A stretch of DNA of 64,000 nucleotides from Stegostoma tigrinum (lineage: Eukaryota). Every line of letters starts with the position of its first letter. Within the stretch, counting starts at the first letter, position 1. Made by a program: the position numbers and the translations under genes. The notes beneath the pieces were generated by a model, which worked only from the letters and a program-made list of their open reading frames with translations, ran no database searches and had not been told where the DNA came from. Where the stretch lies: contig NC_081383.1 in NCBI RefSeq assembly GCF_030684315.1, forward strand, positions 43,261,138-43,325,137, in the 5' to 3' direction. Below are positions 25,793 through 62,008 of the stretch, piece by piece.

Positions 25793-25819
25793 CTGAGTGA
25801 GAGAAACAAGCGCCGCCAT
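25793..25819 (-). CDS. EPS15L1: First coding exon of an EPS15-family gene, most likely EPS15L1
   Basis: gcgaagATGGCGGCGCTTGTTTCTCTCACTCAG|gtaccg = MAALVSLTQ, with a strong Kozak context inside a CpG island and a phase-0 donor. It matches the short first exon of EPS15 (MAAAAQLSLTQ) and EPS15L1. Only 9 codons are visible and exon 2 was not found, so the paralogue call is tentative. Confidence 0.7.
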
Positions 25820-25822
25820 CTT
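25811..25822 (-). promoter_or_regulatory. YY1 motif (AAGATGGCGGCG) overlapping the start codon
   Basis: Exact match to the YY1 consensus, typical of housekeeping genes that start Met-Ala. Confidence 0.55.
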
Positions 25823-25885
25823 CGCCGCGGAGCAGCACCCGCGCTCAGACCGGGCTTTTGGTTGTGGTTGGGAGTGTTGGTGAAA

Positions 25886-25904
25886 CGCATGCGCGCACGG
25901 GCGG
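25886..25904. promoter_or_regulatory. NRF1-like site (CGCATGCGC) followed by a GC box (GGGCGG)
   Basis: acgcatgcgcgcacgggcgg, about 70 bp upstream of the ATG. Confidence 0.6.
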
Positions 25905-26534
25905 CGTCCGCGCACGCACACAGCCGGGGCGACGAGCCTGACGCGCCGCCTGATCACCAAGGGGGTTCGCGCGCGCTGCACGAGCACCGATTGATGTTGC
26001 CTTTTGCCATGTGTTTCCAGAAGCTGCTGTCAAGGCATTGAACCACTTGAGGAAGCAGCGTGTCCCATTCTCAGTAAAGCATCACTCTCAAAAACCGGCT
26101 TCGAAAAATAACAAATACACAAATCATCCAGAAGCAGAAAAGAACATTGATACAAAAACAGAAAAAGCTGGAAATACTCGGTGTTCAAACAAAAGGTCGT
26201 TAACCTAAAATGTTACCTCCGTTTATTATCTCCCCACTGCTGAGCATTTGAATATTTCCACCAAGCTGTGCACTGTGATGGTTACATTTAGCATCGGACA
26301 CCTCGTGGCGGTATGTGCAAGTCCATCCACCACTAATTTCGCATTTGTCGATGTTCCAAGACCGCTGTTAAAATTCTGAAATTTTCTACCCTGTATCATG
26401 GGTGGAGCAAAATCACCCCAAGGACTACAGCAATGCATTCAGAAGGTCCCCCAACACCACTTCAGGGCATCCAGAGAAGGATATTAATGATCAAAGGATA
26501 CTGTGTCACCCATAGGATTAGGAAGAACTGCCCA

Positions 26535-26615
26535 TCTAGGTCCGAAACGTCAGCTTTTGTGCTCCGAAGATACTGCTTGGCCTGGTGTGTTCATCCAGCT
26601 TTACACTTTGTTGCC
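26535..26615 (+). mobile_element. Penelope family B terminal-repeat fragment truncated inside hammerhead helix II
   Basis: tctaggtccgaaacgtcagcttttgtgctcc...ttcatccagct. Confidence 0.75.
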
Positions 26616-26899
26616 CTATTAACCACATTGTGTTACCCACCTCCTCAGAAGTGACATAGACATAGAAGCAAAGTACTGTGGCACCTGAAAACCTGAATTA
26701 AAAACCTAAAATTACATGGCGCAAAAATTTCAGCAGGTCAAGTAGCCAATCCTGAAGTAAGTAATATTCAACTAAAAACATTAGTGCTAATAATGTATTT
26801 ATTAAGTGATAGAAGCATCAGAAAAGATGTCACAAGTAATTTGCAGAATCCTCAGTGCCAGATTGAGGAAATCTCAGTTATTTATAACTGTTTATTCCT

Positions 26900-28912
26900 G
26901 TCTGTCACAAAGGCAAAATGGGTGGACCAGTCCATGCCTTACAAAGGAAGTATGAAATAGTATCCAATCCAAGGAAGAAGCATACAGAATGGCCAAGAAT
27001 AACAGTAAATCTAAGGCATGGGAGCAGTTTAGAATTTAGCAGAGAAGGACCAAGGGATTGATTAAGAAAGGGGAAAATACAATACAAAAGTAAGCTTGCA
27101 GGGAACATAAAGATTGATATTAAGAGTTTCTATAGGTACTTGAAGAGAAAGAGATTGATAAAAACAAATGTAGGTCCCCCTACAAACAGAAACAGGGGAA
27201 TATATAATAGGGGACAAAGAAATGGCTGAGCAACTGAATACCTACTTTGGTTCTGTTTTCAGAAATTACGACACAAATTAGACACCAGAAATGTTGGAGA
27301 AGGCAAGATTTAGTTAGAGGGAAGAGCTGAGGGAAGTCAATATTAGCAGAGAAATGGTGCTGGGAAAATCCCTCTGATTGAAGGCAGTTAAATCCCCAGG
27401 CCTGATAATCTACATCCCAGAGTACTTAAGAAAGTGGCTCTAGAAATAGTGGATGCATTGGTGGTCATCTTTTCGGATTCTATAGACTCTGGAATAGTCC
27501 CTGTAGATTGGAGGGTAGCTAATGTCACTCCAATAGTCCAAAAGAGACGTAGACAGAAAACAGGGAATTAAAGACCAACAAGCCTAACATTGGTAGTGGG
27601 GAAAGTTCTCAAATTGATTATTAAGGATTTCATAGCAGAGAATTTAGAAAGCAGTGGCAAGATCATCTGAGTCACCATGGATTAATGAAGGGGAAATCAT
27701 GCTGGACAAATCTGTTGGAATTCTCTGACGATGTAACTAGTAGAGTTGACAAGAGAGAGCCAGTCGATGTAATATATTTGGACTTTCAGAAAGCATTTGA
27801 CAAAGTCCATATAAGAGATTAATATGCAAAATTAAAGTGCATGGAATTGGGCAAAGTCTATTGAGGTGGAAACTGGTTGGCAGAGAGGAAACAAAGAGTA
27901 GGAATTAATGGATCCTTTTCAAATTGACAGGCAACAACTAGTGGGATGCCACAGGGATCGGTGCTGGGATGTATTAATGATTTGGAAGAGGGAACAAAAT
28001 ACAACATCTCCAAGTTTGCAGATGACACCAAGTTGGGTGGGAGGGTGAAATGTGACGAGGATGCAGAGATCCTTCGGCATGACCTCAACAGGTTGGGTGA
28101 GTGGGCAAATCATTGGCAGATGCAGTATTTTTGGATAAATGTGAGGTTATTCGCTTTGAAAGCGAAAACAAGAAGGCAGGTTACTACCTGATTGGCTGTA
28201 AATTGGGAGAGGAGAGCATGTAGTGGGACCTGGCTATCCTTGTGCACCAGTCGCTGAAGATAAGCATGCAGGTGTAGCAGGTAAATGGTATGTTGGCCTT
28301 CATTGCAAGAAGTTTTGAGTACAGGAGCAGGGATGTGTTGTTGCAGTTGTGCAGGGCATTGGTGAGGCCACACCTAGAATATTGTGTACCATTTTAGTCC
28401 CCTTTTCTGAGGATGTTCTTGCTCTCAAGGGAGTGCAGTGAAGGTTAGCCAGGCTGATTTCAGAGATGGCAGGACTGGCGTATGAGGAGAGATTGACTAG
28501 GTTTGGATTGTTTTCACTAGAGTTCAGATAAATGAGGGAGAGATCTCAGAGACTTATAAAATTCTAACAGGACTAGACAGGGTAGATGTAGGGAGGATGT
28601 TCCCAATGGTGGATGTGTCCAAAACCAGGGGTCACAGTCTGAGAATTCAGGGTAGACAACTTAGGACGGAGATGAGGAGACATTTCTTCACCCAAAGAGT
28701 GGTGAACCTATACATTCATTACCACAGCAAGTAGTCAAAATGTTGACTGTGTTCAAGAGGCGAATATAGTATTTGGAGCAAATGAGAGCACAGGTTTGGG
28801 GAGAAAGCAGGATTAGGCTATTGAGTTGGATGATCAGGCATGATCATGAAGAATGGCAGGGCAGGCTTGAAGAGCCAAATAACCTCCAGCTGCTCCTGCC
28901 TTCTATGTTTCT
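26900..28912 (+). mobile_element. CR1 LINE ORF2/RT remnant
   Basis: [33 protein letters not shown], and 3' tail tctatgtttc. Confidence 0.92.
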
Positions 28913-29004
28913 GAAAACAGTGAAATTGACAGGAAGGAAAAGACCAGCAGCTTCATCAAACCTAAGCATCCTATTAACAAGTCTGAGATAAGAAAGCAGA
29001 AGAG

Positions 29005-29470
29005 TCATAAAGATGGACAACACAGAAACAGATCCTTTAGTCCAACTCGTCCGTGATGACCAGAAATCCTAAATTAATCTAGTCCCATTGGCCAGTATTT
29101 GGCCCATATCCCTCTAAACCTTTCCCATTCATGTACCCATCCAGATGCCTTTCAAATGTTGTAACTGTACCAGCCTCCACTACTTCCTCTCGCAGTTCAT
29201 TCCATACGTGCACTGTCCTTTGCATATAAAGGTTGCCCCTTAGGTCCCTTATTAAATCTTTCCCCTCTCACCTGAAGCTTATAACCTCTAGTTTTGGACT
29301 CCCCCACCCTGAGGAAGACACCTTGTCTATTTACCCTATCCTTGCCCATCATGATTTTATAAACCTCTGTAAGGTCACCCCTCAGCCTCTGAAGCTCCAG
29401 GGAAAATAGCCCTAGTCTATTTAGCCTTTCCATATAACTCAAATCCTCCAACCCTGGCAACATCCTTTAC
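29005..29470 (-). mobile_element. CR1 3' end
   Basis: MLPGLEDLSYMERLNRLGLFSLE..RLRGDL. Confidence 0.9.
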
Positions 29471-30454
29471 AGAAAATAAAGTAAATCTTTGTCAATAGAG
29501 AAAAAAAACATTTTTCAGAGGCTCTGTATCATTCATTAACTGAGGGGATCAAAACCGAATTATTCCTTCTTGATTCTTGTTGAAGAACAGCACTGCTCTT
29601 TATATTGGCTCAGACTAGAAATGCATCTTAATTCTCATTTGTGTTTCTTTAAATTATTTTGTTATACACTCTGCACAAGTCATGAATCTTCACAGTCCAT
29701 TTCCTAAACCACCTCAGCCTGTTTCCTGCTCAACAGACCAGTTTGGAACCCTACACCGTACAGAAATGCATGTTTTTAGCCCAATGTACATATATATTCT
29801 GTTGGTTCACATTATATGTCATCTCCTAGACCCATTTTCACATCACTTTCTTGCTCAATTCAAATCTTTGTGTCATCCATGACTTGTACAGAGTTCCTCA
29901 AAAACCTTCACCCAGATGTTTAATATACAGATATGTCTCTTTTCTCCTGTCATTTCTGAAGGTTGGGCATGGACTTCCATTGGATGGAAGTCAATGGATT
30001 CCCATTCAAGCTTAAGGGAAACATAACAATGGTTTGCAATTGTCTTCTATAGGGTAGCTGGCCAAGAAACTCTTCTGCTTGTATGGCCTTCCATATTGCA
30101 GATATATTGGAAGAATTTACCAACTGACAATCAGCTTGTTTGACCTCTTTAGGAACATACAATCCATGGCCAACAAATCTTGGTATGGGAGTCAAATGCA
30201 AACTTATGGCCAAAGGTAGTGACATTAGCACTATGCTGTAAGAGCTCCCTGCTAATAGAGGAATAGTGAGGAGTAAACATTCTCACACCAATGCCTAAAG
30301 TCTACAAGAATGCAATCAATTCTTTATCCAATCCAAGATCTGTCCACTTAAACCTCTTACATAAATTGGGCTTTATAGCACTTTGTCAAGTTTTTTTTGA
30401 AGATCCAAGCACACAGTATAAGTCATCACTATCAATATCCTCAACACAGGAGTC

Positions 30455-30612
30455 TAGCAATGAGCATGAATCCATTACCAATTGTTGGGGAAAACCCCAT
30501 CTGGTCTTTTAGGGAGGGAAACTGCCATCCTTACCTGGCCAGCCTATTGTAACTCCAGACCCACAAATACGTGGTCGACTCTTAAACTGCCCTGTGTGCA
30601 ATTAGGGATGAT
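30455..30612 (+). mobile_element. SacSINE1-like SINE fragment
   Basis: aaaaccccatctggtcttttagggagggaaactgccatccttacctgg...ctccagacccac. Confidence 0.65.
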
Positions 30613-30764
30613 CTGTTCTTTCAAGTCTGGCAATTAGAAACATCATCATTCTGGCATTCTCACATTCCAATCACAATCTAACTGTCTACATCCTTTCTCC
30701 CTCAGCATTCCTAAGCCCCTCTGCCCACTATTGCAGAAATGCTGCCCCCTGTACACTTCACATC

Positions 30765-30895
30765 AGCTCTGGAGAAGAGTCATCTCGACTCAAAGTGCTG
30801 GCTTGCTGTCTCCACAGATGCTGCCTGACTTGCTGTGATCTCCAGCACTTTTTGTATTCAGTATAGATTCCAGCACCTGCAGTAATTTGCTCCTT
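30765..30895 (+). mobile_element. Old Penelope-type terminal repeat remnant
   Basis: ctggagaaGAGTCatctcGACTCaaag...ctccacagatgctgcctgac; helix II is retained but the core is decayed. Confidence 0.55.
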
Positions 30896-31274
30896 TCCTG
30901 GTAAATCTCCTCTGCTTTTTTTTTGCTCTTAAATGTACACAAGACAGCAACTATATTAAACTGCATTGTAATTAACATTTAACAGTGTCAGGAATAGAGA
31001 ACTGTACATGGAATAAATCAGATTTTGTTTTTAGAAAATGGGGAAGCAGTTCAAAACATTTACAAGTATCAGCCAAATTGACATTTAGATGGGCTTAGTC
31101 AAGAGGTGAGTGACAATTCCCAATTAACACAGACAATAAAACCTATATATTATCAATGGCAATACTCAAATGGTCAAGTTATGTGATTTTCCCATCTGTT
31201 AAAGTTTTGAGAACACTAACCTTCTCTGCCAATGAACGTAAACTGACTGAATCCATCTTGCCATCTTAAGTACT

Positions 31275-31750
31275 TCACCAGCTTCAAAATCTCCCCTTCC
31301 TCCACCGCATCCCAAAACCAGCCCAATTCGTCCCCTCCCCCCACTGCACCACACAACCAGCCCAGCTCTTCCCCTCCACCCACTGCATCCCAAAACCAGT
31401 CCAACCTGTCTCTGCCTCCCTAACCTGTTCTTCCTCTCACCCATCCCTTCCTCCCACCCCAAGCCGCACCTCCATCTCCTACCCACTAACCTCATCCCAC
31501 CTCCTTGACCTGTCCATCTTCCCTGGACTGACCTATCCCCTCCCTACCTCCCCACCTATACTCTCCTCTCCACCTATCTTCTTTTCTCTCCATCTTCGGT
31601 CCGCCTCCCCCTCTCTCCCTATTTATTCCAGAACGCTCACCCCATCCCCATCTCTGATGAAGGGTCTAGGGCCCGAAACGTCAGCTTTTGTGCTCCTGAT
31701 ATGCCTCTGGGCCTGCTGTGTTCATCCAGCCTCACATTTTATTGTCTTGG
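31275..31750 (+). mobile_element. Penelope-like family B 3' end
   Basis: Reverse-complement near-copy of 13945-14412. Confidence 0.88.
31654..31682 (+). ncRNA. Minimal hammerhead ribozyme motif, family B, intact core
   Basis: ct-CTGATGA-A-GGGTC-tag-GGCCC-GAAACGTC-ag. Confidence 0.72.
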
Positions 31751-33219
31751 AAGAGGGGAGATGTAGGTTTACAAAGTAAACAATATGGCTGCATTGCATT
31801 ATATCTACTTTGATAATGATAGCCAGAGTGGAATAGGAAGGAACAGTGCATAAACATGGAAAACAGCAGGTTATAGGGACAAAGAGGGAGAAGAGATTAA
31901 ACAGTCATTAATTGTGCCTTAATTTAATTTCACACAGAATTCTAAACAAAATCAATGAATAGAAGTTACTGGGAGTGATCTTACAGGCGTTGTGGAAGAA
32001 AGGTCATTAGGAGATCAAAGCTGAGAACTAGAGATTCAGAGGTCTATGACTTTTCTAAAGGGCAGGCAGGAAAAGGTAGTGGAGTGTCTTTATTTGAATG
32101 AAACAGAATAAGTACGAGAGCAAGAAATTATCTTGGATCAGGAGAATTAGAATCCATATTGGTGGAGGTAAGAAATAAAGATTAACACAAAACATAGATA
32201 TATCCCAAGGGCCTTAAACATTAGTTTAATGCAGGACAGAGAGTAAATCAGGAGATTACATGTGAATGTTTTTTAAAAAAAAAGCAAGACATTAATCGCG
32301 GGGGACTTAAATCTTCAGATTGGCAGAGGTAGCCATGAGGACGAGTTCACAGGGTGCATTTGGGATAGTTTCCTCAAACAGTACATTGTGGATCCAACCA
32401 GGGATCGGGCTATTTTAAATCTGATCCTGTGTAAAGAAGCAGGGTTAATGTGATTACCTTAATGTCAAGATTCCCTAAGAAACAGTAACTATAATATGGC
32501 AAATTTAATATTCAGTTTGAGAGGGAGAAACTGATGTCAGAAAGAAATGTGCTAAAGTTAATTGAGGGTATTTGCAAGGGAATGCAGGAGGAGTTGACCG
32601 AAGTTGATAGCTGCGAAACAATTACAGACTTAAGAAAATACTTCATGACTCACAAAATATATGCCAATGAGAAGTTTTTTTTTAAAAGAATGGGGATAAA
32701 CCAACAAGTTATACAAGCAAGTTAATGATAGCATCAATTCAAAAGACAAAACACTTCAAAGTAGCAAAACTTAATAGTAAGCCTTGCTGGGGCCTAAGCT
32801 GCTTGGCCTGCTGGGTTCATCCAGCTCAAACACCTTGTTATCCTAGTAAGCCAGAGGATTGGGAAAGATTTAATAATTTTTTTAAAAAGACCAAAAACAA
32901 GGAGAAAATAAACATTGTGGGAAAACATGCAAGTAATATCAAAGTGGACATCAAGAATTTTTAAAATTTATATTAAAGATAGGTAGAAGTCAAAATAACC
33001 ATTCGCCTTTTAGGGAATGAGGTTGGGAATATAATAGTGGGGCAACTGGGTTGAACACCTTCATTATTTCATTTTGCTCTGCTCACTTTTGGTCTGAAAA
33101 GGAGCTTGAATTGAATGTAACCATTAGAATGAGCATCAGCTTGTTTAAACAAAAGCTAACTTGTTCATGGGAACTAGCCTGGGAAGTTAATTGCAGATTG
33201 ATTATTGTTCAGAGGTGGT

Positions 33220-33406
33220 GGTGCGGAGGTGCCACTGTTGGACTGGGACGGACAAGGTCACAAGTCACATGACACCAGGTTATAGTTCAACAGGTTTATT
33301 TGAAATCACAAGCTTGCGTGGTGCTGCTCCTTTGTCAGCACTCCGAAAGCTTGTGATTTCAAATAAACCTATTGGCCTCTGATATGGTGTCATGAGACTT
33401 GACCTT
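33220..33406. mobile_element. Inverted pair of Penelope family C terminal repeats
   Basis: Perfect 24-bp arms at 33292-33315 and 33347-33370, extending imperfectly to about 33254 and 33406; ctccGAAAGCTT half-core. Confidence 0.8.
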
Positions 33407-35523
33407 CAAAAGAACAAAGCAGACATTTCGGCTCCAGTAATGCATTATGCTCAACAGCTAGCACCTTTAGATGTTGAAAAGAGCCATCACAGGGGAGGTC
33501 AGTGCAGACCAGTCTAACAAAGAGAATGTTGCAAAAGAGACTCCGAAGTTTGAACAGTTTTGAACTATATTCTTTAGACAGAAATGCCATGGCTGTGAAA
33601 ACTACTAGTTTTCTAGTTAAAGAATTACTGAACCTATAACTCCAGTATAAGAAATAGTGAATATTCCTCAGAGCTAACTGTCAGAATGATACATTGACCA
33701 GGAACTTAAGAAATAAAGCAAAATACAATGCAATATAAATCACGCGGAGTCAACAATGGCTTCCTGAAAGGGAAACCATATCTGACAAATCAGAATTCTT
33801 TGAAATTACAACAAAGTAGGAACAGATAAAGTAGAAGCAGCAGGTGTAATATATTTGGATTTTTAGAAGGCTTCTGACAAGGTACCATATGCTAGGCTGC
33901 CTTCTAAGATAACAATCCAAGGTGCTGGGGTAGTCTATCAGCATGGATAGAGGTTCTGCTAACTAATAGAAGACAAAGTTGGGAACCTGTTTTCAATGGA
34001 GTGCCTCTGTGCTGGGGCCACAAACATTTATACAGTGTAAAACAAAAGTTACCCTTCAGGTCTCTGCTAAATCTTTCCTCTCACTTTAACAATATGCCCC
34101 CCAGTTTTGAACTCCCTTACCCTGGGGAAAAGACTATGCTATTCATTTTATCTATACCTCATAGGTAATCTAAATCATGATTTTATAAACCTCGAAGGTT
34201 ACCCCTCAACCTCCGATACTCCAGTGAGAAAAGTCCCAGACCATCCAGCCTCTCCTTGTAATTCAAATTCTCCAGTCCCGGCAACATCTGGTGACTCTGA
34301 CGTTGGCAAGTCCTGCACGGGTATCGTTGGTCAGCCAGCTTAGGGCTCAGGAGTCATGGTGGAGGCTGCTGAGGGAAGGTGGACTTTCTTTCAGCTTTGT
34401 CTTTTTATTCTTGAAATATTCAAACAGCACCAGATTGTGGTAACAGTTGAAGTGTTTCACTGTATTTTACCATGTTGTTCATGGTAGAGTACAAGTGACA
34501 AAGTATAAATCATAAATCACATCCTGGGAAATCTTTTATGAATCCTCTCTAACTTAGTATCTTTCCAATAGAAGGAGGACCAGAACTGTACACAGTACTC
34601 CAAAAGTGGCCTCACCAACACCCTGTACAATCTTAACATGGCACTGCAATTCAATGGTTTGAGTAATGGAGGCAAGCTTACCAAACACCTTCTTAATCTG
34701 TGATGCAATTTTCAGAAGAATTATGTACTTGAACCCATACGTCTCCCAGTTTGACAACACTATCCATGACCCCAACATTCACTGTATAAGCCTTGTTTGT
34801 TTTACCTAAATGCACCAAATTAGACTCCACCTGCCACTCCTCAGCTCACTGACCCAACTGATCAAAATCCCTCTGTAGTCTTAGATGACCTTCACTGTCC
34901 AGAGACAGACAGATCAAATGCATGGGCAAAAGCTTGGCTGGTGGAATATAATGTAGGAAAATGTGAAATTACACACTTTGGCAGGAAGAATAAAGCTGAA
35001 CATTACTGAAATCGAGAAAGACTGCAGAAACCTGCAGCATGGAGGTATGTGGGGGGTCCTTGTGGATAAATCACAAAAAGCAAGCATACAAGTTCAGCAA
35101 GGAAAGGAAAGGCCTTTATTTCAAAGGGAATGGAGGAAACTAAAACTTTACAAGGCACTAGTTTAGCATACTGTGAACAGTTTTGGTGCCTTTATCTAAA
35201 GAAGGATATACTGGCATTAACTGCAGTCCAGAGACAATTAACCAGGTTGATCCTGGGTATAGTGGAATTTTCTTACAAGAGAAGTTAGATTGGACTGGTA
35301 TTCAATGCAGTTTAGAAGGAGAAATGACCTTGTTATAACACTGCTGATTCCTAGGAGGCTGGTCAATGTAAATGCAGAGTTTGTCCTGTTGGACAAGTGT
35401 AATTAATCTGTGGAATTCTTTACTGTAGTGGACTGTTACGGCTGATCATGAAGATATTCAAGGCCGTGATGGATTTTGAATCAATCAGTGGCAAAATCAA
35501 GAGTTATGGGAAAAGCCAGAAAA

Positions 35524-35845
35524 GTGGAGTTGAGGATCATCGGATCAGCCATGTTCTCACTGAATGGCAGTGGAGTTGAGGATCATCGGATCAGCCATGT
35601 TCTCACTGAATGGCAGTGGAGTTGAGGATCATCGGATCAGCCATGTTCTCACTGAATGGCAGTGGAGTTGAGGATCATCGGATCAGCCATGTTCTCACTG
35701 AATGGCAGTGGAGTTGAGGATCATCGGATCAGCCATGTTCTCACTGAATGGCAGTGGAGTTGAGGATCATCGGATCAGCCATGTTCTCACTGAATGGCAG
35801 TGGAGTTGAGGATCATCGGATCAGCCATGTTCTCACTGAATGGCA
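35524..35845 (+). repeat. Perfect tandem array, 7 x 46 bp, derived from a CR1 3' UTR
   Basis: Unit gtggagttgaggatcatcggatcagccatgttctcactgaatggca starts at 35524, 35570, 35616, 35662, 35708, 35754 and 35800. Confidence 0.97.
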
Positions 35846-35999
35846 GCTTAGACTCAATGGACCAAAATGTCCCACATTCACTCCTCGCAATCTTGGAATT
35901 CTAAACTGCTCCCAACTCTACTTGCTGGCTACTTTTGTCTTGCAACCTTGCATGACTCCTCTGAATCTAATATTAATAATTAATTTCTTTTTTCAGCCA

Positions 36000-37529: not shown

Positions 37530-40500
37530 TATAATAAAGCTTTGTAAAAAGCCTTTATTGTAGTTAACACAAACATTGTGAATCCCAGGAACATTCAGCA
37601 AATCAGCTCTAATGTCAAAGGTACCTGATGCAAGACTGGGGCTTACAATTCTCTTTTTGACTTAAAGTAATAAGGGCAAATTGAGTCTTAGGCTGTAGTT
37701 AAAGAGGTCAATTGCAAATATCACCGATGTAAAAATGTGAATTGTGGTTGCGTACTGGTCCAGTGAATTAATCTAAATTCAGAATCAAAACAGTATAAAT
37801 GAAACAAGTCATCAGTACAGGGCTACTAACAATAGACTTGCATGAAATGCAGCCTATTCAAGTCTGGGGCTGTGCTGCTCTCCAACAGATTAGCTTTTCT
37901 TGGAACAAAATAACTCGAGAGAGTTAGAGGAGTATAAGACATGGCAGCAGACACAGCAACATGCCCTTGTGCCTCAGCAACAGTGGGCCAGTACAAGGCC
38001 TGTTTGATCAAACTACTGGACAGGTGGGTGGGGAAGGTAGGGATGCAGGCCCAGAAAGAAGCGAGGAGTAAACAGCACCAGTACTAAATATAAACTACAT
38101 TTCCAATTACCTTTCAGAGACAAGCTTCTGATTTTGAATTGATGTATACAGGAACTTGGAAAGGGTTTTCAAGTGAGTAGAACTGAGCTTTATTTTATTC
38201 GATTCTAGTGAATCTAGCTCCATATGTCAGCAATGGCATTTTGAAAAAGGTGGGGTAGGGAAGGCCATAACAAGCAGCCATTACTTAGTGGCCCAAGACT
38301 CTCACTTTGAGAATGGAACTGAATCACAAACACATTAACACTCAACATTAATCCCCAACTACTCCAAAGCATGAGCAGGCATACAATAAAACCAGCAGAC
38401 AAATAACCAAAGGACAATCAACTTAGTGCTGACCCTTTCCAATCCCTTCTACATTAATGCACATGCAGCAAAACTGCAGAAGAGGGGTTTTAATGTCCCA
38501 TTAAACTAAGGACGGAGTCTAACTAAGAAGTCTATAATTATAATTACTATACCCCCCCAACTCCTCATACTCTTCCAACAATCTAGTTTGGACACACTCT
38601 TTGGTCACAGAAGTTAACAATTCTGCTGACTAGCCCCCAAACAAAACCATCTCTCCAGACTTAATTACATAATAACTCAAACAATTAGAAAGGATACAAC
38701 TAATTGGAACTTCAAACTAATTCATTTCTCAGGCCAGGTGATTTCAGGCTCCAGATGGTCAATAACTTACTTAACCTAATGTTGAAGTAATCTATCAAGC
38801 TCAGCTCAAGTATGGGCAGATTCCAAATAGTATACAGAAATGTCTGCTTGGCATTAATAAAAGGATTCAGATTAAAATAGTGGGATTGGATGCTAAATGT
38901 AGATTAACTATCAAAACAGACTGGAGGGGCTTTTGGGAACTCATGTTAGCTTATATCCCTGAAAGGTAAAGTGCATCCTGTATACATTCTGAACAGTTCA
39001 ACACTGTTGGAAAGTTGTAAATCAAAATATTTTGGTTAATTACTTCAAGTTCCTTCAGAGGTTAGCCATAAAATAGCAAAAGGCTTTAATAAAAATGCTC
39101 ACATAATATCCGCATAGCAAAAAGTAAAAGCTTTTTTGCTATTTTAAATTGTCAATGATGGGAAACTATTATCAAAAGCTTGCATTTGAAAGTATTTTTC
39201 AACAACCTATAAGCCATAATTTTTATCTCCTTTTTAACACCATAAACAGTATCACTTCTCGTCAGACTATTCAGGGAATAATTCAAGGTGTCAAGATTAA
39301 ACTTAAGCGATTCACTTTTTTAAAAAGAAGAAGTGTTTGATGGATTATATACAAAATAAAATTAATTTCAGTGATCAAAAAAAATTTAGGTTTAATTTAT
39401 GATTCCCAAGGCCTCAGTCAGGTAACTTCAGTGAAACAGCAAGGTTTCAGCTATCTGCCTACAAACTGAGACACAACAGTATTATTTTACCTCAAGCCAA
39501 TATCATTCAAACATAATTAAGTCAGCTCAACTTGTGCCTCAAAATTCTGCAGAAAGTAATGGCGTGAAAGATTCCAATCATGAATGCTCACATGCAGCTG
39601 AGTTCAGAAGGAAAACTGCAAGCAACTGTATTCCTTGTAGAGTAATCACAACCGTAACTGCTCAAGACAGCCTATTAGAAGAGCCATGGTTCAACACAAA
39701 AACAAAAAACGCATATCTATTTCTTTTTGAAGCACCTCAAAGCTATGTTTTTGAGTTGCAAACAGGAAACTATTACAGGAAAGAAAGACTTCCAGTTCTG
39801 AAGTGTCACAATAATCAAAGGCATTTTTCTGATGATAATGTTTTTAGGTTCCACTGAATAAGTGTTAGAAAAATTATTTCAGTCTTTCAACTGTAATTGG
39901 TTACCTCTCACCTGAGAGAAGATAAAACAAAGCAAAAAATCATGGCATACATCATCGGGACTTGAGTAAAATAAAAATCCTCTTGACCAACTTATGACCA
40001 AACCCGGTTCCTTAGTCACTCAAATTAAACCGTATTCTAATTTACAAGACTGCTTCAGTACATCATAAAAATAACTATTAAACCAATCTGTGCACCTCAA
40101 AAATATTACTTAACTCTGCAAACAGGCCAAGTACATAATCATTTTATATAACCCATCTTGGTGACAGTTATGCACTTTGTTACTCCCTATCCAACACTCG
40201 TCAAATTTAACTAAACATGAACTTGCTGCACTCAATAGTGTGTGGGAAACATCAGAGTTGTGTAGGCAGGTCTGACTGCCCTACCATGCCTATTGCTATG
40301 GGATCGTTTTGATGTGTTGCCCTTGGTCAAAAGCTTGTAAATTGTCTATTTGACTCTCTAAATTCAGGCCAGTTAGTGCTATTTAGAATATTGATTCCAC
40401 AAGTAGTTTAACATTAAGAAACAGCTACGTGCAATATTTGAGTGAGCGCTAACAAAATTAAACTGCTGCTACTTACTCCGACAAGCTAGAGATTCCTGCA

Positions 40501-41356
40501 GTGATTGCAAGCTGCTGTTTAATACCGTGCTTCATTTTGTTTTTAATAAAAATACAGACTGCAACACACACTTTCTAAACAGCAATGCAAGACAGGTTGC
40601 TTTTTAAATACAGCAGTTTCCAAATGTGGGAAATTTTGCACTTTTATTTTTAAAAAACATTTTGCTGCCTTCACGATGGGTATGGTTGCATTTCCAATAG
40701 TTGGCAGACATAAACCAGGCAATATTCTATTAGGCATCACAACAGCTGTCAGCAACATTCCAGAATGGCAATGTCTACTACTTAATGATTGTACATTTCT
40801 GTCCACCAGCCCACATGCCCAGCTAAACCCCCCTCCCCACACCCAACACAAACATACAAAGAAAAAAAAATCTACTGAAAAGTCTGATTGTAGGCAAGTT
40901 TGAAACATTATGCTGCAGAAGCACTTGACCTTCAGTCTCCGCCACACAAATCCAGGCCTGTATTCACAAAAAGCACAAATGCAAAGTGTTTTATCTAAAA
41001 TTCAGGGGCTAGGGAATTTTTGGTGCATATACTGCATAAGCTTTTGTGAATACAGGCCCGTACCAGCCCCTGCCCACCCCCCAACCACCAAAACTGACTA
41101 GTCATAATGAGTTGTTATTTATCACCTAGTATAGACTGACCAAAGGGATACTGTATCTGATTTGTTTAAATATGTGCTTTCCAACGCTGCACTTCACAAT
41201 GCTGATACCACCAGGTAATACACACTAGGCTGGGCCTCACCATTAACCACCCACTGCAGATAGAGGGAGAGAGGTTGGGTTCTGAATAGAAGCGTGGGTG
41301 GGAGAATGGAAGGGGAGATGGGGGAGGGGAAGAGGAGGAAGAAGGGGAAAAAAAAA
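37530..41356 (-). other. Putative long 3' UTR of RAD23
   Basis: About 3.8 kb after the stop codon with no recognisable TE, in an otherwise TE-dense window. Minus-strand poly(A) hexamers at 40643-40648, 40542-40547 (ATTAAA), 38189-38199 and 37554-37559. Confidence 0.55.
37554..37559 (-). terminator. Candidate distal polyadenylation signal (AATAAA) of RAD23
   Basis: Minus-strand AATAAA followed by a U/GU-rich tract (tagttttgtttttttagt), near the end of the TE-free block. Confidence 0.5.
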
Positions 41357-41470
41357 TCATTCATCATCAAAGTTCTGCTGGAGAAGGAAGTTTGCAGCGA
41401 GGTTTTCATTCTTCTCACAAGCGAAGTAGGCTTGAATGACAAGTCCCTCAGGGAAACCCAGTGCCTTTAA
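41357..41470 (-). CDS. RAD23: RAD23 last coding exon, UBA2 domain and stop
   Basis: ttcttgtttcag|TTA AAG GCA ... GAT GAT GAA TGA; 114 nt, [37 protein letters not shown]. Confidence 0.98.
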
Positions 41471-41841
41471 CTGAAACAAGAAGAAAAAAAATTGTTTATA
41501 GTTAATTATTGATCCCAATCTTTCCACCCACCTTCACAGGAGATAAATGCCAAAAAACAAAAACACACTAAGTAGACAAGCCTCTGTTGCTAAAGGCAGG
41601 GAGCAGGTGTCTATAATGACTGTATTCAACATATTCCCAACCACTGACTGGAGCAAGTAACACTGAACAAAACTCATGCTTGAAGGGCAAGGAAAAACTC
41701 AGCAGAACATGTAGAGACCCAAAAGTAGTATGAAGATCTTAAAGTAAGATGAGAACAGAAGACTAGTATTTTGACAGCCATTAACAAGTAACAGACATCC
41801 AGAGTGTGGCACAAAGTGTTAGGGAACTGCGCCTGTATTTT

Positions 41842-50533: not shown

Positions 50534-50677
50534 CCTTTCTATTGCTTCCTTCTCCTGGGGTGTAACCTGGATGTAGTTAGTGTGTGGTGACCCATGACCC
50601 TCTGCCCCTTCACTTCCAGCCTCTCCCAAAGGGTCATTCAACATCTGAACAAACTGCTCCTGATGCTGAGTTATTTG
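50534..50677 (-). CDS. RAD23: RAD23 coding exon (exon 9 equivalent)
   Basis: ttgcttttcag|CAA ATA ... GAA AGG|gtaagt; 144 nt, [48 protein letters not shown]. Confidence 0.97.
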
Positions 50678-54140: not shown

Positions 54141-54564
54141 CAAACTCCCCCTCCGAGTCTCTCACCATTGTAATTTGGAACTATAATGCTGTTCTTTCGC
54201 TGGGACAAAATCCTGGAACTCCCTAGAAACATGATGAACATCCCTCCACTGTGAGGAATTCAGAGTTTGAGAAGGCAGCTCATCACCACTTTTCCCCATC
54301 ATTTAGTAAAAAGCAATAAATGGTGATCTAGTTCACAAAATTTACATCTCAAAGATAAACTTTAAAAAAAACCCCTACTGAGCCAAAGGCTTCATTTCAT
54401 GCAGAATCGAGCCCATATATCAGTAACTGTATCTGATCCAGTATAAGATTTAGCTTTTCAATATTTTTTTAAGTGAAAAGTTCCATATCTAACAGAGGTC
54501 GTCACTGAAGACTGAAACCTGTCAGCACACAGTCAGCAACAATCACAACTGAGGTATCACATAA

Positions 54565-54900
54565 TTAGAATGCTAGAATCCCTCTAGCATAGAAAAAGGA
54601 TACTGGGCACATTCAGTTTGCATGAACCTCCAAAGAATATCCCACACAGACCTAGACTCCCCCACCCTATCCCATAACCCCACATTTACCACGGCTAACA
54701 GTGCACATCCCTGGACACATGAGGCAATTTAGCATGGCCAATCCACCATACATGTTCATCTTTGGGCTGTGGGAGGAAACTGAAGCACCAAAGAAGAAAT
54801 CCACACAGACACAGGGAGAACATGAAAACTCCACGCAGATAGTCATCCAGGGCTGGAATTGATCGGTGGTGCTGTGAGGCAGCAATGCTAACCACAAAGC
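54565..54900 (-). mobile_element. HE1-like V-SINE (tRNA-derived)
   Basis: Head gtggttagcattgctgcctcacagc, V-domain-like ctgcgtggagttttcatgttctccctgtgtctgtgtggatttc...ggattggccatgctaaattgcc, and a CR1-like tail. Confidence 0.85.
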
Positions 54901-55678
54901 CCAAACATCACTGAAATTGCAACCAATCTACTATAATCTCCAGAGGCAACCATTACTTGCATCGATTTCAACTCCTTTTCAAAATCATGTTCAAGTGACC
55001 ACAACAAGCTACCATTTTAATGAACAATTTGGCCAACTCAATCATCGCAAGCTAATAGTAAAGTCTGTTCAATTTGAATAGTATCCAATTGTAGGTGCCT
55101 CACTTAAGAAAATACAAAGTCAGCAAAAGAATACAGATGAAATTAATGATATAAAAGATGGAAGTGTTTAATTTTAAGAGGAGACTGAAGAAACTCTCAG
55201 TCTTTCCATTACGACAAAAAATTAAAACATTAACAGACATGTTCCAATTTAAGGTATTTCAAAGATGATAAAACATTTCACTGATCAATCAACTAACAAC
55301 CACAGGGTCTCAATTATTTACAAGACCGAAGGGAGATGTGAATATTTATTTCAACTTTCCCAAGGCTGTTGGGCACAGATTGAGACCCAAAAGGTCTCTC
55401 AAAAGATAAAGCAGATAAATATCAGGAAAAGAAAACTCTACAGGCTAGAAGGAAAGGGATTAAGTAGATATCGGACAGCCAGCACAAATATCAGGGGAAA
55501 GGGCAGGAAAGTGGAACTTGGGACAAGGCACTGTCAGCATTCTTGGCAGCCATGCAGCTGTAACCCAAAAGTAACCAAGACAAAAGGAAGCAATTGAAAC
55601 ATGAGAAAGAATTAGTTTTGCAGACATTGATGTTCATGCAAGTGATATTGAACATGCAAAAAAAAATGGATGGCATAC

Positions 55679-55806
55679 TTGTAAAAGCGTTGGGTTGTCT
55701 CTCCCAAGCTGCTGGAGAAGGGCTGGCAGTAGTGCTGGATTCTGCTGTATTATCTGACGCATCTGCTGAAACTGGGGTTGGGTTCGTAGAAATTCCAGTG
55801 GGTTAC
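55679..55806 (-). CDS. RAD23: RAD23 coding exon (exon 8 equivalent), XPC-binding/STI1 domain
   Basis: atctttttcag|GT AAC CCA ... TTA CAA|gtatgc; 128 nt, (S)[42 protein letters not shown]. Confidence 0.97.
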
Positions 55807-56002
55807 CTGAAAAAGATCATAGTTAGTCATCTTCACAAACTAAAACAACAGTCGGTACCTTAGTGGAGTGACTGCTCACCAACACGACGCTAGATTGTTA
55901 TATTTCCAAAATTAACAAAAATTAGTCATCGCGTTTTGTGCTACAGACTTCAGTGAAGTTCACCACATTACTCTATTGCCCACACTGACTGACTACACTC
56001 AC

Positions 56003-56096
56003 TGCTTGGTGTAGATTGCGACGCTGGCTGTGACGGTGGTTGTGTTGTGACTCGAGGTTGTGGTTCCTCTGGAACTTCCGGCTCTGCCGGGATTCC
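56003..56096 (-). CDS. RAD23: RAD23 coding exon (exon 7 equivalent), linker
   Basis: tcttcattcag|GGA ATC CCG ... CCA AGC A|gtgagt; 94 nt, GIPAEPEVPEEPQPRVTTQPPSQPASQSTPS(S). Confidence 0.93.
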
Positions 56097-58702
56097 CTGA
56101 ATGAAGAGCAAAACATCAATCATAACTGCACCACAGGTAAAGACAAAAACTACAAACTAACCTAATATTATGAACCAACTGATCCAAAAATCAAGAGTTT
56201 CCCAAGATTAACAGAATCAAAATTACAAAACAAAGCAACTGTTCAGAGGTCAGTAAAGATCAGTACCAAACATACTTCATTATTGAACATTGTCTATGTT
56301 GCCACTTTTTTTCCAGTCGAGTTTGTGACTCCCTGCATTAACCAGGAAGAAATAAGCACATTTTTTGCCATAGCCGTATGATTACTTGACTGGAAATGTT
56401 AGAACAGTCAGGCCAATCTTACTTGCAACTAATAAAAAAGTCATATTAGTAAGCTACTACCTCAAACTTAGTCGATAAAATTTTTTAAAATGTTTAAAAA
56501 TAACATTAAATGTTGGAAATACTCAAGTCAGGAAAAGTCTCTCAAGAGAAAGTTAATGCTGATGAACTTTCAATGAACTGAAAAGAAAAACTGATACTAA
56601 GTCAACGGAAGCCAGGAGTTAAGAAAATAGAGAATAAAGCCTGTGATAGAGCAGAGGGCAAAAGGTTTCCTCGTACAACAAGCCAGAGAGAGAGATAGTG
56701 AACAAGATTTAAAAATTTGACCAGATAAAGCATGAATGGCTATATTGCAGCGACCTGAATACAACATGAAGGGATAAGCAAAGAAATAAGACCAAGCAAG
56801 CAAACAAACAAAATGGAGGAAGAGGTTATGTTCAAAAATCATTGAACTCAATATTGAGTCCAGAAGGCTATAAAATGCCCAGTCAAAAAATGAGATGCTG
56901 TTCATCAAATATGCATTGAGCTTCACCACAGTGAGCAAAGAACAAAAAGATCAGCATGGGAGCAAAGTGCAGAATTGAAATAAAGAGCTACAGCAGTGCA
57001 GGCTCATGCTTGAGGACTGAACAGAGGCCTTAGGCAAAACAGTCACTCATCCAAGCACAGGGGACGCAAAACCTGTCCTTTTACCACTTCTCTTCCCACT
57101 CCCGAGTGGACATATATTTTTTCTTCTTTCAATCTAGCCGACTGTATTTGTTGCTCATGTTCAAGTCTCCTTGACACTGGGAAGGCCAAGCCCTACCCAC
57201 AGACCTTTCCTATTGCTCTTCCTGCCCTTGTCCCCTTCCACTGTTTTAAAACCTATACATTACTGTCTTCTCTTTCAGTTTTGATGAATAGTCACTGACC
57301 TGCATCAATAAGTGCTTCTTTCTACAAACTCCTCTGACCTGCTCAGTAATTTCATGATTTTCTGCTTTAAGATTTCCAGCATCCACATTATTTTACTTTT
57401 ATGTAAAAGGTGTTTTGCCAGTAATACTGTTTAAAACGATAATCAATCCAAGAGAGGTACAAAACAGCAAGTGTGAGACCGGAAGAACTGCCTTTAACAC
57501 TTGAGTCCAGCAATTTAATTAAGTCCTTCAGAAAGAAACCTATAAAAGGATACAGTGCTATGAACACAGTATGCTAATTCAGCGTTCCTGCACAGGCTGA
57601 GTAACTGCTCTGCAAAACAGCTCTACTCAGTCCATAAGAATGACCCCGACCTTCTAGTTATTTGCTATTTCAACAAGCCACCTTGCTCTCATGTCAACAT
57701 TTCTGCCCTGGGCATGCTACAAAGTTCCGACAAAGTGCAACATAAGCTTAAGGAAATTCAGTTAATTTCCTGTTTAAGCACTTTATCGCCATGAGGTCTC
57801 AACAATCAAACTCAATAACTTCAGAAACTGACCACATGATGTCTATTGTCCATTTTTCTTACATTGCCATCTCCCCGCCATGTTCACTTATTTTCCCCCT
57901 CAGTACAGAGAACACAATCCCTCCTTTTCACATCTCAACTTACACCAATTTACAACCCTTTTTCTCTTCCCTCCACCACTAACGATACTTTTATGTTTTG
58001 CACTATTCCCTTCATCCCTCCTTGGTCTGTCAAGAGCACGCAAAATGTTTGCCAACATCCTTCAATTCTGAACTTGAAATGTTAACTGCTTCTCTCTACA
58101 TAGATGCGGCAAGATAGGTTTCATTTCTCTTGCATTGTCAAATAGAAAATTATGCCACACTGTTCTTCTGCAACTTTAGTACTGGGAAGGTTATCGCTCC
58201 TCATTACCACCAGATCACTACTACATCAAAGACTTCAATGTTTGATAGCTTCCACAACATTTTTCAGTAGAAGAATCTTCCAGTGACCTGCATTGTTCAG
58301 AAAGACCTCATGGTATGTTAAGCAAAGGCAAAGACACTGTTTGGCACAATGCTAAGCCATGAAGTCCAGAAGATTCCAATCTCTAGCTGAGCTTAGGAAA
58401 TAGAGTACTTGTTGTTTTGTACCTCCTTTGATTAAATAAAAATGCCAAAATTGGTTATAGTTTTTAAACACTATTGATGGCAAAGCCCCTTCTTTCAAAG
58501 AAAAATAAAGGGGGATGCTGGAAATCTGAAATAAAAACAAAAATTCCATGAAGTATAGAGCAAGTCAAGAGCATTTGTAGGAAGAAGCAGTTAACATTTC
58601 AGGTCAATGACAATCTTGTCAATTTTCTCTCATGCATTGGCACTAACGAATGCCTCCCTCTACAGGCAAAAATAAACACTTCAAACTCCATCTGTGACTC
58701 AC

Positions 58703-58830
58703 CGTCAGAAGATATTCCACAGCTCTGTCAGGGTTATTATAGCTTGCCCGCAGAGCTGCAAGAACCTGCTCCCGTTCGTAGCCCATTGACATGATTTCTG
58801 CCACCAGATTTTCATAAGCTTGCCCTGTTA
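58703..58830 (-). CDS. RAD23: RAD23 coding exon (exon 6 equivalent), UBA1 domain
   Basis: tttactccag|TA ACA GGG ... CTG ACG|gtgagt; 128 nt, (V)[42 protein letters not shown], with the UBA MGY motif. Confidence 0.97.
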
Positions 58831-59264
58831 CTGGAGTAAATGTGCATAAATGAACCTATGCCAGTCCAAATGGAAACAAATTCACTGACAGATCTCAAAA
58901 TTTCAATGAACTAAAATTCAGTAGTTCTACTTTTTTTCTAAAAAATCTAAACATAATAAATTGGTTTTTGTGGTTTTGGACAAGTGACTTTTGCAGCCTT
59001 TTTATAAGAGTAATTCTGTGAGCAAACACCAGAATTGCACCCAGTTACACTAACAATGAAACATCTACATATTTTCCTTTTATGTAGTCTATGCAGATTA
59101 CACAATGGAATAGTGAAGCCAGACTGTGATGGCCCTTCAGTATGTTTATTCAGTAGAGATAAGATTTCCTTCTTGCATACATCACATGGAACTCATCCTC
59201 AGGAATTTAAGGAAAGTAAATGTAGTTGAAATGAAAGTAAATGTCCTCCTTCACAAAGGAGGAT

Positions 59265-59760
59265 ATGAATAACATTCCAAACATCTTACAGAACACGGGA
59301 TCGAGTGAGAAAGATGAAAAAATATGTAACTGCAATTCAATAGAATACCAGCACCAGGTTATTGACCAGCACCACGTTAGAATATATCAGGCACTGATAC
59401 ACTAGCTGAAGGACAAAATACAGTTTAGAAAAACCCGAGGAAACACTATGCAGGGAGGATGTTTCCACCAGCTGGGGTTTCTAGAACCAGTGGTTCACAA
59501 TCTCCTGTACGGACAGGCCGTTTAGTACCGAGATGAGGAAAAATATCTTCATTCAAAAGTCAGTGAGAACCAGTGTAATTCTCTACATCAGAAAGCTCTG
59601 GAGGCCAAGTCACTCAATGTTTTGAAGGAAGAGATAGTTTATTTTAAAGGCATGTTAAATGGGGAGAAAGCAGGAAAATGGCATTGAAATAGAGGATCAA
59701 CCATGATCATATTGAATGGCAGAGCATGCTTCAAGGGATTACACCAGCTCCTGGTTTAAC
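59265..59760 (+). mobile_element. Old CR1 3' remnant in a RAD23 intron
   Basis: gagatgaggaaaaatatcttcattcaa and gatcaaccatgatcatattgaatggcagagc 3' UTR. Confidence 0.7.
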
Positions 59761-59975
59761 TATATTAAAAAACAACTTCTGAAACAGAACAGAATACTTT
59801 CCTTAATCAACATAAGTAAAATACTGGTGTCAGCATTACTTTTTCTTTCTCATATTATTCTAGTGTCTAACGCATGCACAGAAAAGAATTTCAATTTATT
59901 CAACAGATTAACAGTAAAGCAAGACTACTCAGTGCCTAATGTTTCAGCAGTGATAAATCCTTTCTATAAGCTTAC

Positions 59976-60031
59976 CTAATGTGGATGAGGCTGTTTCCAC
60001 CAAATTCAAGTCAATTTCTTCAGCCATAGAT
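59976..60031 (-). CDS. RAD23: RAD23 coding exon (exon 5 equivalent, 56 nt)
   Basis: tattattccag|A TCT ATG GCT ... ACA TTA G|gtaagc, encoding (R)SMAEEIDLNLVETASSTL(V). It bridges phase 2 to phase 1 exactly and resembles the DATSALV/DAASTLV segment of RAD23B/A. Confidence 0.92.
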
Positions 60032-61670
60032 CTGGAATAATACATTACAATTAAAATTTTACATTAACTCATCATTCTGCCACCTGAACATAGCAAATCG
60101 GATTACTGCATGGTTCTAATATAATTAACCAAGGTTCCATAACAGAGATTCTAGTGAACAGATTGCATCTGTTCCAACTGCACTGGCCTGAATGGTTTTC
60201 AAACAAAACACAAAACTTGAAACTTAAGTGACCAAGGTCACTCAATTTAATATAATTGCAAACTGTATTGTTGGCATCAAACGATGAAGGAAAGTTCATT
60301 ATTGGTAGTTTGCTAGTTAAGAGGCTGTACAAAGCTTTTATACACATGTACTCCATGCTGGAAATGATTGATCAGTAAACAATTGTTATCAAGTATAGCA
60401 CAACATGCAAAGTTAAGACAGCAATAAAATGCAAATCTATTTGAGATAATTACATTCTTTATCAATTAAAATTCAATTTCCACAAACACTTTTGACTGAT
60501 TTTATTTGTCATTTGCACCATGCACCATTCAAGGGAGGATAAGTAGATTGTTTATTCCTCAGCTTCCACCCAATCTTGTTCTTGAATCAGACATCCAGGA
60601 AGTGCATAGAAGGTCACAAAATGCAACTCCAGTCAAGTACTTCTATCTGACATCAGAGCTGGGATTGTAGACCTATTATTGGGACTGTAGGGAGCACCAA
60701 CACACTGCTCTATCAAAAACAATTTTAAATATCCTTAAATACACTCAGGCTTATTCACTAACAACAATCTAAATGCATCTTATTCTCTCAGAAGTACAAC
60801 TGTATCATCAGTTCCATGATAAACTAGAACACAAGAACATTTGGAAAGTAACAATGTACTTAAAAATCTCCCTACAAAGGTACAACGTGTTGGAAATCAC
60901 AACGTCTTCTCCCACAGAACACTATGATATGGACGCACTTTCTCAAAACAGCACATATTGAATTCCCAAGCTCAATCATTCACTCTGTGATAAGAACAGT
61001 GAGAAAGAGAAACAGGAAAAGGGGGCAGCAGGGAAGAGGTCAGGAGGGGGTAGCAGGCAGGAGAAGAGATAGAGCACAAGAACAATGAAATGTTGGGGAC
61101 AGGGGAAAGTGAGACACACGAGGTGGGGGGGCAGATTAGAGTGGGGGGTGCAGACAAGAGGGCGTGAATAAGGGAGCGCAAGAGAGAAAGATTTAGTGTT
61201 GCCCAGGAGAATATTGGTGCACTATAACTTTCAACAAAAAAATCTCTCTGCAAACAACCTGGTAAACTGAATATTTGCGATGCAAAATGTGAATCTGAAT
61301 AATAAAACTGCTGTGTTTGTGCAGATCCTGAAATTTCAACGCAGCCACAAAGCAGTTCCAGGTACTGTAACTAAAAATCTACAGCAGCTCTAGGCCAAAA
61401 ATGATTTTCATGAGTCTGATTGGATCTTTTCAAAAATCAGATGGATCAGGGGAAAATTAAGCCATTTCTTCTTCTTTCTTCCATTTGCTTAGTTCATGCT
61501 GCTAGGAATTAAGTCTCAAAAAGTAAATTTAAAACCTTCAATCATTATTGTAAAAGGACCTCCTGAAAATTAAGTCAGATGCCCCAAAAATACTGTTGTT
61601 TTCTTTCCTAACTTCAGCACAAATCATATGCATTAATATCCAGCACTTTTCCTACCCAACTTTATTGTAC

Positions 61671-62008
61671 CTTGGGTTAAGTGCTTCAGAAACGGCACTG
61701 GTTTCTTCTTTTGTTTCTTCTTCCTTTGGCTTTTCCTCTGTAACTGTACTAGAAGAATCAGACGTCGGAACAATAGCTGGTGGTGAGGCAGGGGCAATAG
61801 ATGTGGCACCTGAGGTTGGGGTGGGGTTAGAGTTGGAAGTTTGACTTGAAGGTGAAATTGAATCTGCAATTAAGCTTGGAACTGCAGTTGAAGCTGGAGC
61901 CGTAGCTGAAGTTGTAGTTGAGGTGGACGCAGCTGAAGCGGTACTCACTGAAGCAGGCACTGGAGCAGGCTGTGTTGTTGGTTGTGCAGGCACAGGAGCT
62001 GCTTTAGG
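61671..62008 (-). CDS. RAD23: RAD23-family gene, coding exon equivalent to RAD23B exon 4 (Pro/Ser/Thr/Ala-rich linker after the UBL domain)
   Basis: Acceptor ttctttgaaaacag|CCT AAA GCA and donor CCCAAG|gtacaa; 338 nt, PKAAPVPAQPTT...EEKPKEEETKEETSAVSEALNP(R). It ends in phase 2, which matches the next exon. The UBL exons are not in the window. Confidence 0.9.

Follow-up and report, generated by a model that had tools for sequence, protein, structure and literature searches.

A spliced RAD23 gene upstream of EPS15L1

The window analyzed here, a 64,000-nucleotide stretch of the Stegostoma tigrinum genome (NC_081383.1; G000:C38:43261138-43325137, with feature positions relative to the window unless G000 is given), contains seven exons of a RAD23 gene, whose relationship to other vertebrate RAD23 genes is our subject, and the first coding exon of EPS15L1. 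A first-pass annotation, made from the sequence alone, had described the two in tandem on one strand about 15.5 kb apart; this was confirmed, as the MAALVSLTQ exon of EPS15L1 lies 15,538 bases from the RAD23 stop codon, on the same strand and in the one CpG island of the window. The seven RAD23 exons (exons 4 to 10, minus strand, 62008 to 41357) all have AG/GT ends and together make 1002 nt, or 333 amino acids plus a stop codon, the length already counted in that annotation. Exons 1 to 3, which encode the UBL domain, lie 2.6 to 30 kb past base 64000, outside the window. All ten exons (66, 82, 80, 338, 56, 128, 94, 128, 144, and 114 nt) form a 409-amino-acid frame with no internal stop.

One contig spans exons 4 to 9 across five introns in four of four runs (two studies), with loose ends reaching into exons 3 and 10; the kind of these runs is not recorded, and they are taken as transcript contigs solely because introns are skipped at CT..AC ends. 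A pseudogene was ruled out by the open frame and the spliced contigs, and a read-through or fusion with the upstream calreticulin gene by a separate stop and start 10.9 kb apart in this shark. The database protein XP_048415781.1 (“RAD23 homolog B-like isoform X2,” Stegostoma tigrinum; P0479) matches the window protein over 407/407 residues, so the gene has been auto-annotated as RAD23B-like, as had been foreseen. It is two residues short at the exon 6 acceptor, where two tandem acceptors 6 nt apart (58830-58824) determine whether an isoform includes VT immediately ahead of UBA1; use of the downstream acceptor would account for the shorter form. Database entries of three other carpet sharks also show 409/407-amino-acid isoform pairs. 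Elsewhere in the window, repeat copies with very deep transcript-contig cover (31300-31750, 37170-37290, and 53600-54140) are probably abundant short interspersed elements, and the window gave no tRNA or Rfam matches.

All four Pfam domains scored above cut-off on P0479 (PF00240, ubiquitin; PF00627 twice, UBA; PF09280, XPC-binding), in the order UBL-UBA1-XPC-binding-UBA2 that is typical of the RAD23 family, and residues 177 to 366 form a lysine-free stretch of 190 residues resembling those of other RAD23 proteins. The best solved-structure match was human RAD23B (460 bits, versus 413 bits for RAD23A), to which the domains are nearly identical. In RAD23 proteins the XPC-binding domain stabilizes XPC in global-genome excision repair, and the shark domain, by analogy with the family, would do the same. 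The study 10.1101/2022.12.08.519562 describes UBL-UBA proteins whose UBA domains hold ubiquitylated targets while the UBL domain docks on the proteasome, and a lysine desert in RAD23A that is required for full UV repair. Likewise, the shark UBL domain would dock on proteasomal ubiquitin receptors, with the UBA domains holding ubiquitin chains. Given the near-identity of its domains to those of human RAD23B, the shark protein is predicted to be both a proteasome shuttle and an XPC partner. It is an ordinary RAD23, with no new biochemistry, that is already in databases under other names.

Features of the RAD23 gene and of its downstream neighbor (positions relative to the window unless G000 is given)
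Feature	Position	Strand	Basis or remark
RAD23 exons 1-3	G000:C38:43354897-43354832, 43329303-43329222, 43327771-43327692	-	outside window; UBL domain
RAD23 exon 4, 338 nt, Ala/Ser/Thr/Pro-rich linker after UBL	61671..62008	-	spliced contigs; loose end reads exon 3
RAD23 exon 5, 56 nt	59976..60031	-	joints 60031-61671 and 58830-59976 in 4/4 runs
RAD23 exon 6, 128 nt, UBA1 domain	58703..58830	-	AG/GT ends; Pfam
RAD23 exon 7, 94 nt, second linker	56003..56096	-	AG/GT ends; spliced contigs
RAD23 exon 8, 128 nt, XPC-binding domain	55679..55806	-	Pfam PF09280, 62.5 bits; spliced contigs
RAD23 exon 9, 144 nt, end of XPC-binding to UBA2 start	50534..50677	-	AG/GT ends; spliced contigs
RAD23 exon 10, coding part, 114 nt, UBA2 and stop	41357..41470	-	exon search; transcript contigs
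RAD23 3' untranslated region, ~3.8 kb	37540..41356 (lower end approximate)	-	transcript contigs 37598-41471 in pieces; AATAAA at 37559
EPS15L1 coding exon 1 (MAALVSLTQ, phase 0)	25793..25819	-	sole such candidate before exon 2; phases match; SLTQ-LSSGNPVYEKYYRQ joint in PDB 1QJT
EPS15L1 exon 2	G000:C38:43204882-43204841		phase 0; followed by EH-domain exons
CpG island over EPS15L1 start	25500..26000	.	GC 0.64; CpG observed/expected 0.98, top of 127 bins (median 0.24)

Placement among vertebrate RAD23 genes

The homologue collections were each of limited length, and absences from them mean “not seen” and not “absent.” Among the best 120 of 1323 matches to the XPC-exon query were sharks, rays, and a chimaera (“B” or “B-like”), followed by gar, bowfin, and teleost rad23ab, by contigs without a species name, and by a single “lamprey” protein of doubtful origin; these 120 included no named lobe-finned vertebrate. 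The doubtful entry (P0018, labeled Lampetra planeri) resembles teleost rad23ab and lies on a 36.8-kb contig, which suggests possible contamination or mislabeling, and it was kept out of the trees. A query with the exon of the second shark RAD23, on contig C45, gave 68 matches, mostly RAD23A, along with one bird RAD23B and one lamprey protein. The best 120 of 1294 matches to a bird RAD23B query came from mammals, birds, a snake, sturgeon, paddlefish, and eels, and included no cartilaginous-fish protein. A 50%-cluster library (best 150 of 6535; 20 named) added coelacanth, Danionella, and pufferfish RAD23B and invertebrate outgroups.

Trees were built on 246 of the 409 positions, with linkers dropped and rows picked by name for taxon spread; of the 44 rows in the first, 42 came from 307 proteins of the XPC-exon, C45-exon, and bird-RAD23B collections. 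In all three trees the shark, ray, and chimaera proteins named “B” or “B-like” formed a clade with gar, bowfin, and teleost rad23ab, here called RAD23C (supports 98/96 with 44 rows, 94/94 with 36, and 94/90 with 21). RAD23A formed another (100/97, 95/97, and 86/97) that held the C45 gene and left the window gene outside. Since A and C each contain both shark and bony-fish groups, they were duplicated before these lineages split. A single clade of teleost rad23aa and rad23ab was rejected by the approximately unbiased (AU) test (p-AU 1e-5), and rad23ab thus did not originate as a RAD23A duplicate in teleosts. Single species hold C together with another copy, as in Conger (a C protein, P0046, and a B protein, P0252) and in gar and Polymixia (both A and C), and skate and chimaera proteins titled plain “RAD23 homolog B” are of the C type.

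Four residues, all carried by the window protein, mark the RAD23C clade. L97, T180, and V187 were present in 9/9 C rows, where 22/22 A and B rows have M, S, and I, and D171 was present in 9/9 C rows and 1/22 A and B rows (E in 21/22). All four were found in 95/120 of the listed XPC-exon matches, the remainder being unread at some column, and none of them in any of 68 C45-exon or 119 bird-RAD23B matches; D171 alone of these columns lay within the XPC-exon query. The first-pass annotation had argued instead from a mixture of A-like and B-like motifs. Every motif it quoted is there, with STLV and YLLTGIP running across exon joints, but they are not what identifies the lineage: the argument is weak because shark RAD23A carries ASFNNP in place of ASYNNP and NPSML in place of NPALL, and because some states occur in outgroups, DRAV, QQM, and LGR being found also in lamprey or invertebrates. 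Its further remark that the Gly run of RAD23B is missing stands (longest G run 1, versus 7 in lemur RAD23B).

An intron at YAG|KIL splits the UBL domain in the window gene and is missing from shark RAD23A; human RAD23B presumably has it too, in which case it would fit B and C as sisters of the second round of duplication. In shark RAD23A (C45:16.531-16.533 Mb) the first linker is encoded by two exons, of 143 and 158 nt. The branch of this gene is longer than that of the C gene, which makes A the faster-evolving copy in sharks.

Sister blocks and the absence of RAD23B

The gene order on C38 is a KLF gene (42.85 Mb, plus strand), EPS15L1, RAD23, calreticulin, and a TMEM38 gene (43.86 Mb). Two of these neighbors had been predicted in the first-pass annotation and were found: (i) a calreticulin paralogue past base 64000 on the minus strand, thus on RAD23's strand, which ends 10.9 kb before the RAD23 ATG, and (ii) a KLF gene (C38:42.85 Mb) past the 3' end of EPS15L1, which we presume to be KLF2. 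The calreticulin gene (G000:C38:43365831-43407228), in the position of CALR3, is well conserved and intact-looking, with a KDEL end. We take the human order to be KLF2-EPS15L1-CALR3-TMEM38A, to which C38 adds RAD23.

For EPS15L1 itself, no ATG-exon like the MAALVSLTQ exon occurs elsewhere between RAD23 and the EPS15-family exon that comes next, and we infer that the MAALVSLTQ exon splices to exon 2; PDB 1QJT (Eps15) reads SLTQLSSGNPVYEKYYRQ, the same joint as that of exons 1 and 2. The first intron is 82 kb long. Transcript contigs of the four runs did not extend over exon 1, which argues neither for nor against the splice. EH exons (PF12763) were found on both C38 and C10, and because the C10 gene is nearer to human EPS15 (78.9 versus 60.1 bits), the C38 gene was called EPS15L1, that is, the copy farther from EPS15 in a comparison made against EPS15 only.

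Three other chromosome-scale contigs carry related blocks. On C45, a calreticulin gene lies directly upstream of the second RAD23 on the same strand; this RAD23 is RAD23A by the trees, and the calreticulin is the nearest of the shark copies to human CALR (129.9 bits, versus 114.5 for C38 and 106.3 for C10). Downstream of RAD23A, C45:16505200-16510300 holds a fairly complete element resembling a retrotransposon without long terminal repeats, with ORF1-, endonuclease-, and reverse-transcriptase-like frames (by eye). The study 10.1101/794404 gives RAD23A and GADD45GIP1 as neighbors of DAND5 in coelacanth. On C10, calreticulin is followed by EPS15, with no RAD23 between them and no remnant of one detected in that interval (best protein-profile E 1.7; best DNA E 0.044). 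The calreticulin adjoining EPS15 there is intact-looking; its human counterpart is, we presume, the pseudogene CALR4P. C3 has TMEM38, ZNF462 (sole PDB match 1X6F), and a KLF gene best matched by KLF4 among the KLFs in PDB, which gave no KLF2 for comparison. Genome-wide, three calreticulin and three calnexin-type loci were counted. Paralogues of calreticulin, EPS15, KLF, and TMEM38 thus stand in matching order and orientation on C38, C45, C10, and C3. Outside this shark, gene models that fuse calreticulin to this RAD23 in skate (P0008) and gar (P0026), used solely as a sign of adjacency, suggest that the neighbor pair is common to shark, skate, and gar.

Whole-assembly searches returned two RAD23 loci only, on C38 and C45. 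The UBA1 exon query gave 2 matches of 3 candidates, the Pfam XPC-binding profile 2 of 37, and the UBA2 exon 2 of 2; a full-length coelacanth RAD23B query gave 143 candidates, of which 104 were scored, with RAD23-type matches on C38 and C45 alone. The site of RAD23B should, if the human order is as we take it, lie between ZNF462 and KLF4, which on C3 end near 26.237 Mb and 26.097 Mb, respectively, and the 500 kb from KLF4 to TMEM38 have no N. No RAD23 was found in the ZNF462-KLF4 interval by tblastn (five queries, two of them RAD23B). Four domain profiles also detected none there (best E 1.4, whereas the two genuine loci score 1e-14 to 1e-30), and neither did a nucleotide-level search using 13 exons, whose best match (E 0.042) fell outside the ZNF462-KLF4 gap. 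The first-pass annotation had expected a third copy beside separate RAD23A and RAD23B genes; RAD23A was found, RAD23B was not, and its canonical site is empty. It had also held that its proposal would fall if the protein nested within A or B with no other copy at the canonical locus; the site is indeed empty, and the gene does not nest inside RAD23B.

Taken together, we conclude with high confidence that the window gene is an intact, spliced RAD23 of a third jawed-vertebrate lineage, RAD23C, shared with gar and teleost rad23ab, that it is likely an ohnologue of early whole-genome duplication with a predicted RAD23-like function, and that it probably replaces RAD23B. A timing before the shark/bony-fish split is supported, and its status as an ohnologue, which rests on paralogous neighbors in order on separate chromosomes, is likely. 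The earlier idea of an ohnologue retained in cartilaginous fish therefore stands as to a lineage distinct from A and B in a calreticulin-EPS15L1-KLF block, but not as to its confinement to these fishes. An ancestral calreticulin-RAD23-EPS15-KLF block would have been quadrupled in the early vertebrate genome doublings, the copy beside EPS15 would have lost its RAD23 early, ray-finned fishes would have kept A, B, and C, and this shark A and C, while coelacanth and tetrapods (lobe-finned vertebrates) apparently retained A and B. As RAD23B is absent from the assembly, the window gene would carry its load and probably does its job in this shark. We also lean toward a broader reading, in which RAD23B was lost from cartilaginous fishes as a whole, leaving RAD23C to serve their XPC-dependent repair and proteasome shuttling, RAD23C was lost from lobe-finned vertebrates, which kept RAD23B, and the full set of three survives in ray-finned fishes alone. 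Orthology would then be wrong in each “RAD23B” label of a shark gene as well as in the zebrafish name rad23ab, and one could ask directly in zebrafish whether B and C can stand in for each other.

Several points weigh against these conclusions. The RAD23B clade was weak in two of the trees (87/13 and 52/93, against 93/90 in the third), amphioxus fell inside RAD23A in the third (21 rows), where the root is unstable, and no order of A, B, and C was rejected (B+C, p=0.10 and 0.17; A+C, 0.26; A+B, 0.38), so that the timing of the duplication rests on synteny and not on the tree. A grouping of the shark gene with RAD23B to the exclusion of rad23ab was not rejected with 21 rows (AU p=0.112). On the side of synteny, the human orders and the labels CALR3, KLF2, KLF1, KLF17, and TMEM38A/B are presumed; gar calreticulin joined the C38 copy at just 82/90, modest support with informative sites nearly even (5 versus 6); and the evidence from ray-finned fishes covers only the upstream calreticulin side (the gar model). 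The apparent absence of C from lobe-finned vertebrates rests on 120 of 1323 matches and 20 of 150 named representatives. The loss of RAD23B rests on one assembly, and in the empty interval C3:26144500-26155500 is a low-complexity tandem repeat of about 10 kb, with stop-free frames of up to 1386 codons, where an assembly fault is possible.

That repeat bears on the best-surviving alternative, in which RAD23C is real but the shark also has a RAD23B, outside the assembly or elsewhere in it, so that the window gene is a third copy; it could mark such a fault at 26.144-26.155 Mb, and the genome search scored the best candidates only (104 of 143). We consider this unlikely, as the 140-kb ZNF462-KLF4 interval is free of N, RAD23B is slow-evolving and would score high against the coelacanth query and the others that found none, what is titled RAD23B in skate and chimaera is of the C type, and the best 120 of 1294 RAD23B-type matches included no chondrichthyan.

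Less likely still, the window gene would be the shark's true RAD23B, either moved to the CALR3-EPS15L1 block or ancestrally there, its likeness to rad23ab being due to convergence or ancestral states. In favor of this, the assembly has no other B-like RAD23, the top structural match of the gene is to RAD23B, databases name it B or B-like, and the smaller AU test leaves room for it; yet three of three free trees joined it to rad23ab, the AU test with 36 rows rejected a grouping of the shark, skate, and chimaera genes with RAD23B without rad23ab (p=0.011), and the four derived residues are common to it and rad23ab, not to B. Moreover, gar appears to have the same calreticulin-RAD23 pair, ray-finned fishes hold a separate B as well, and a relocated RAD23B would have had to land precisely in the paralogous slot. 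A segmental duplication early in the history of jawed vertebrates, for which the tree leaves room by not giving the order of A, B, and C relative to the lamprey gene, is the least probable origin of RAD23C, given four chromosome-scale contigs with matching paralogues.

Comparison with known RAD23 genes

The window gene is misnamed two ways, being already in databases as RAD23B-like or as rad23ab. We found no paper treating it as a third RAD23 lineage, in a search that left subscription journals and Ensembl gene trees outside, and the literature matches to “rad23ab” were a plant paper and a shorthand for human A and B. PMC12921049 counts two vertebrate RAD23 isoforms. PMC13450315, which describes an ohnologue database drawing on gar and elephant shark, does not mention “RAD23” in its main text or in one supplement, though the online database may already hold the family, and five supplements of PMC8302630 gave no match for RAD23. 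A third lineage running from chimaeras to teleosts corrects the count of two vertebrate RAD23 genes and the orthology of zebrafish rad23ab, and it means that setting shark “RAD23B” beside mammalian RAD23B (e.g., in work on shark genome stability) compares paralogues.

Among known genes, the closest counterpart is rad23ab of ray-finned fishes (gar XP_015221197.2; in teleosts, “RAD23 homolog A, nucleotide excision repair protein b”), which shares with the window gene the clade in all trees, the four marker residues, a calreticulin gene directly upstream (in the gar model), and 69% full-length identity between the shark and gar proteins. It differs in that teleost copies have a longer first linker and a name implying a RAD23A duplicate, and in that ray-finned fishes, unlike this shark, retain RAD23B beside it. 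RAD23B of bony vertebrates (human hHR23B; PDB 28JS/8EBS) has the same domain order, is the best structure match, and has 64% identity in its mammalian form, but it belongs to another clade and lies at ZNF462-KLF4 instead of calreticulin-EPS15L1; the shark gene is without the Gly run and has L/D/T/V where RAD23B has M/E/S/I. RAD23A (human hHR23A; the shark copy at G000:C45:16.524-16.544 Mb) also has the domain order and a calreticulin gene directly upstream on the same strand, but its identity is 55-60%, it has NPHRAV and QFQNMRQV, and the shark copy has 9 coding exons versus 10 in the window gene.

Beyond the family, RAD23C resembles differentially kept ohnologues such as GREM3, a vertebrate paralogue that, according to 10.1101/794404, cartilaginous fish and gar retain and humans have lost. 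RAD23C appears to have the same distribution, and it fills a slot in the calreticulin-RAD23-EPS15-KLF paralogon; unlike in the case of GREM3, this shark is also without the sister that humans kept, so that the loss looks reciprocal and RAD23C offers a clean case of it.

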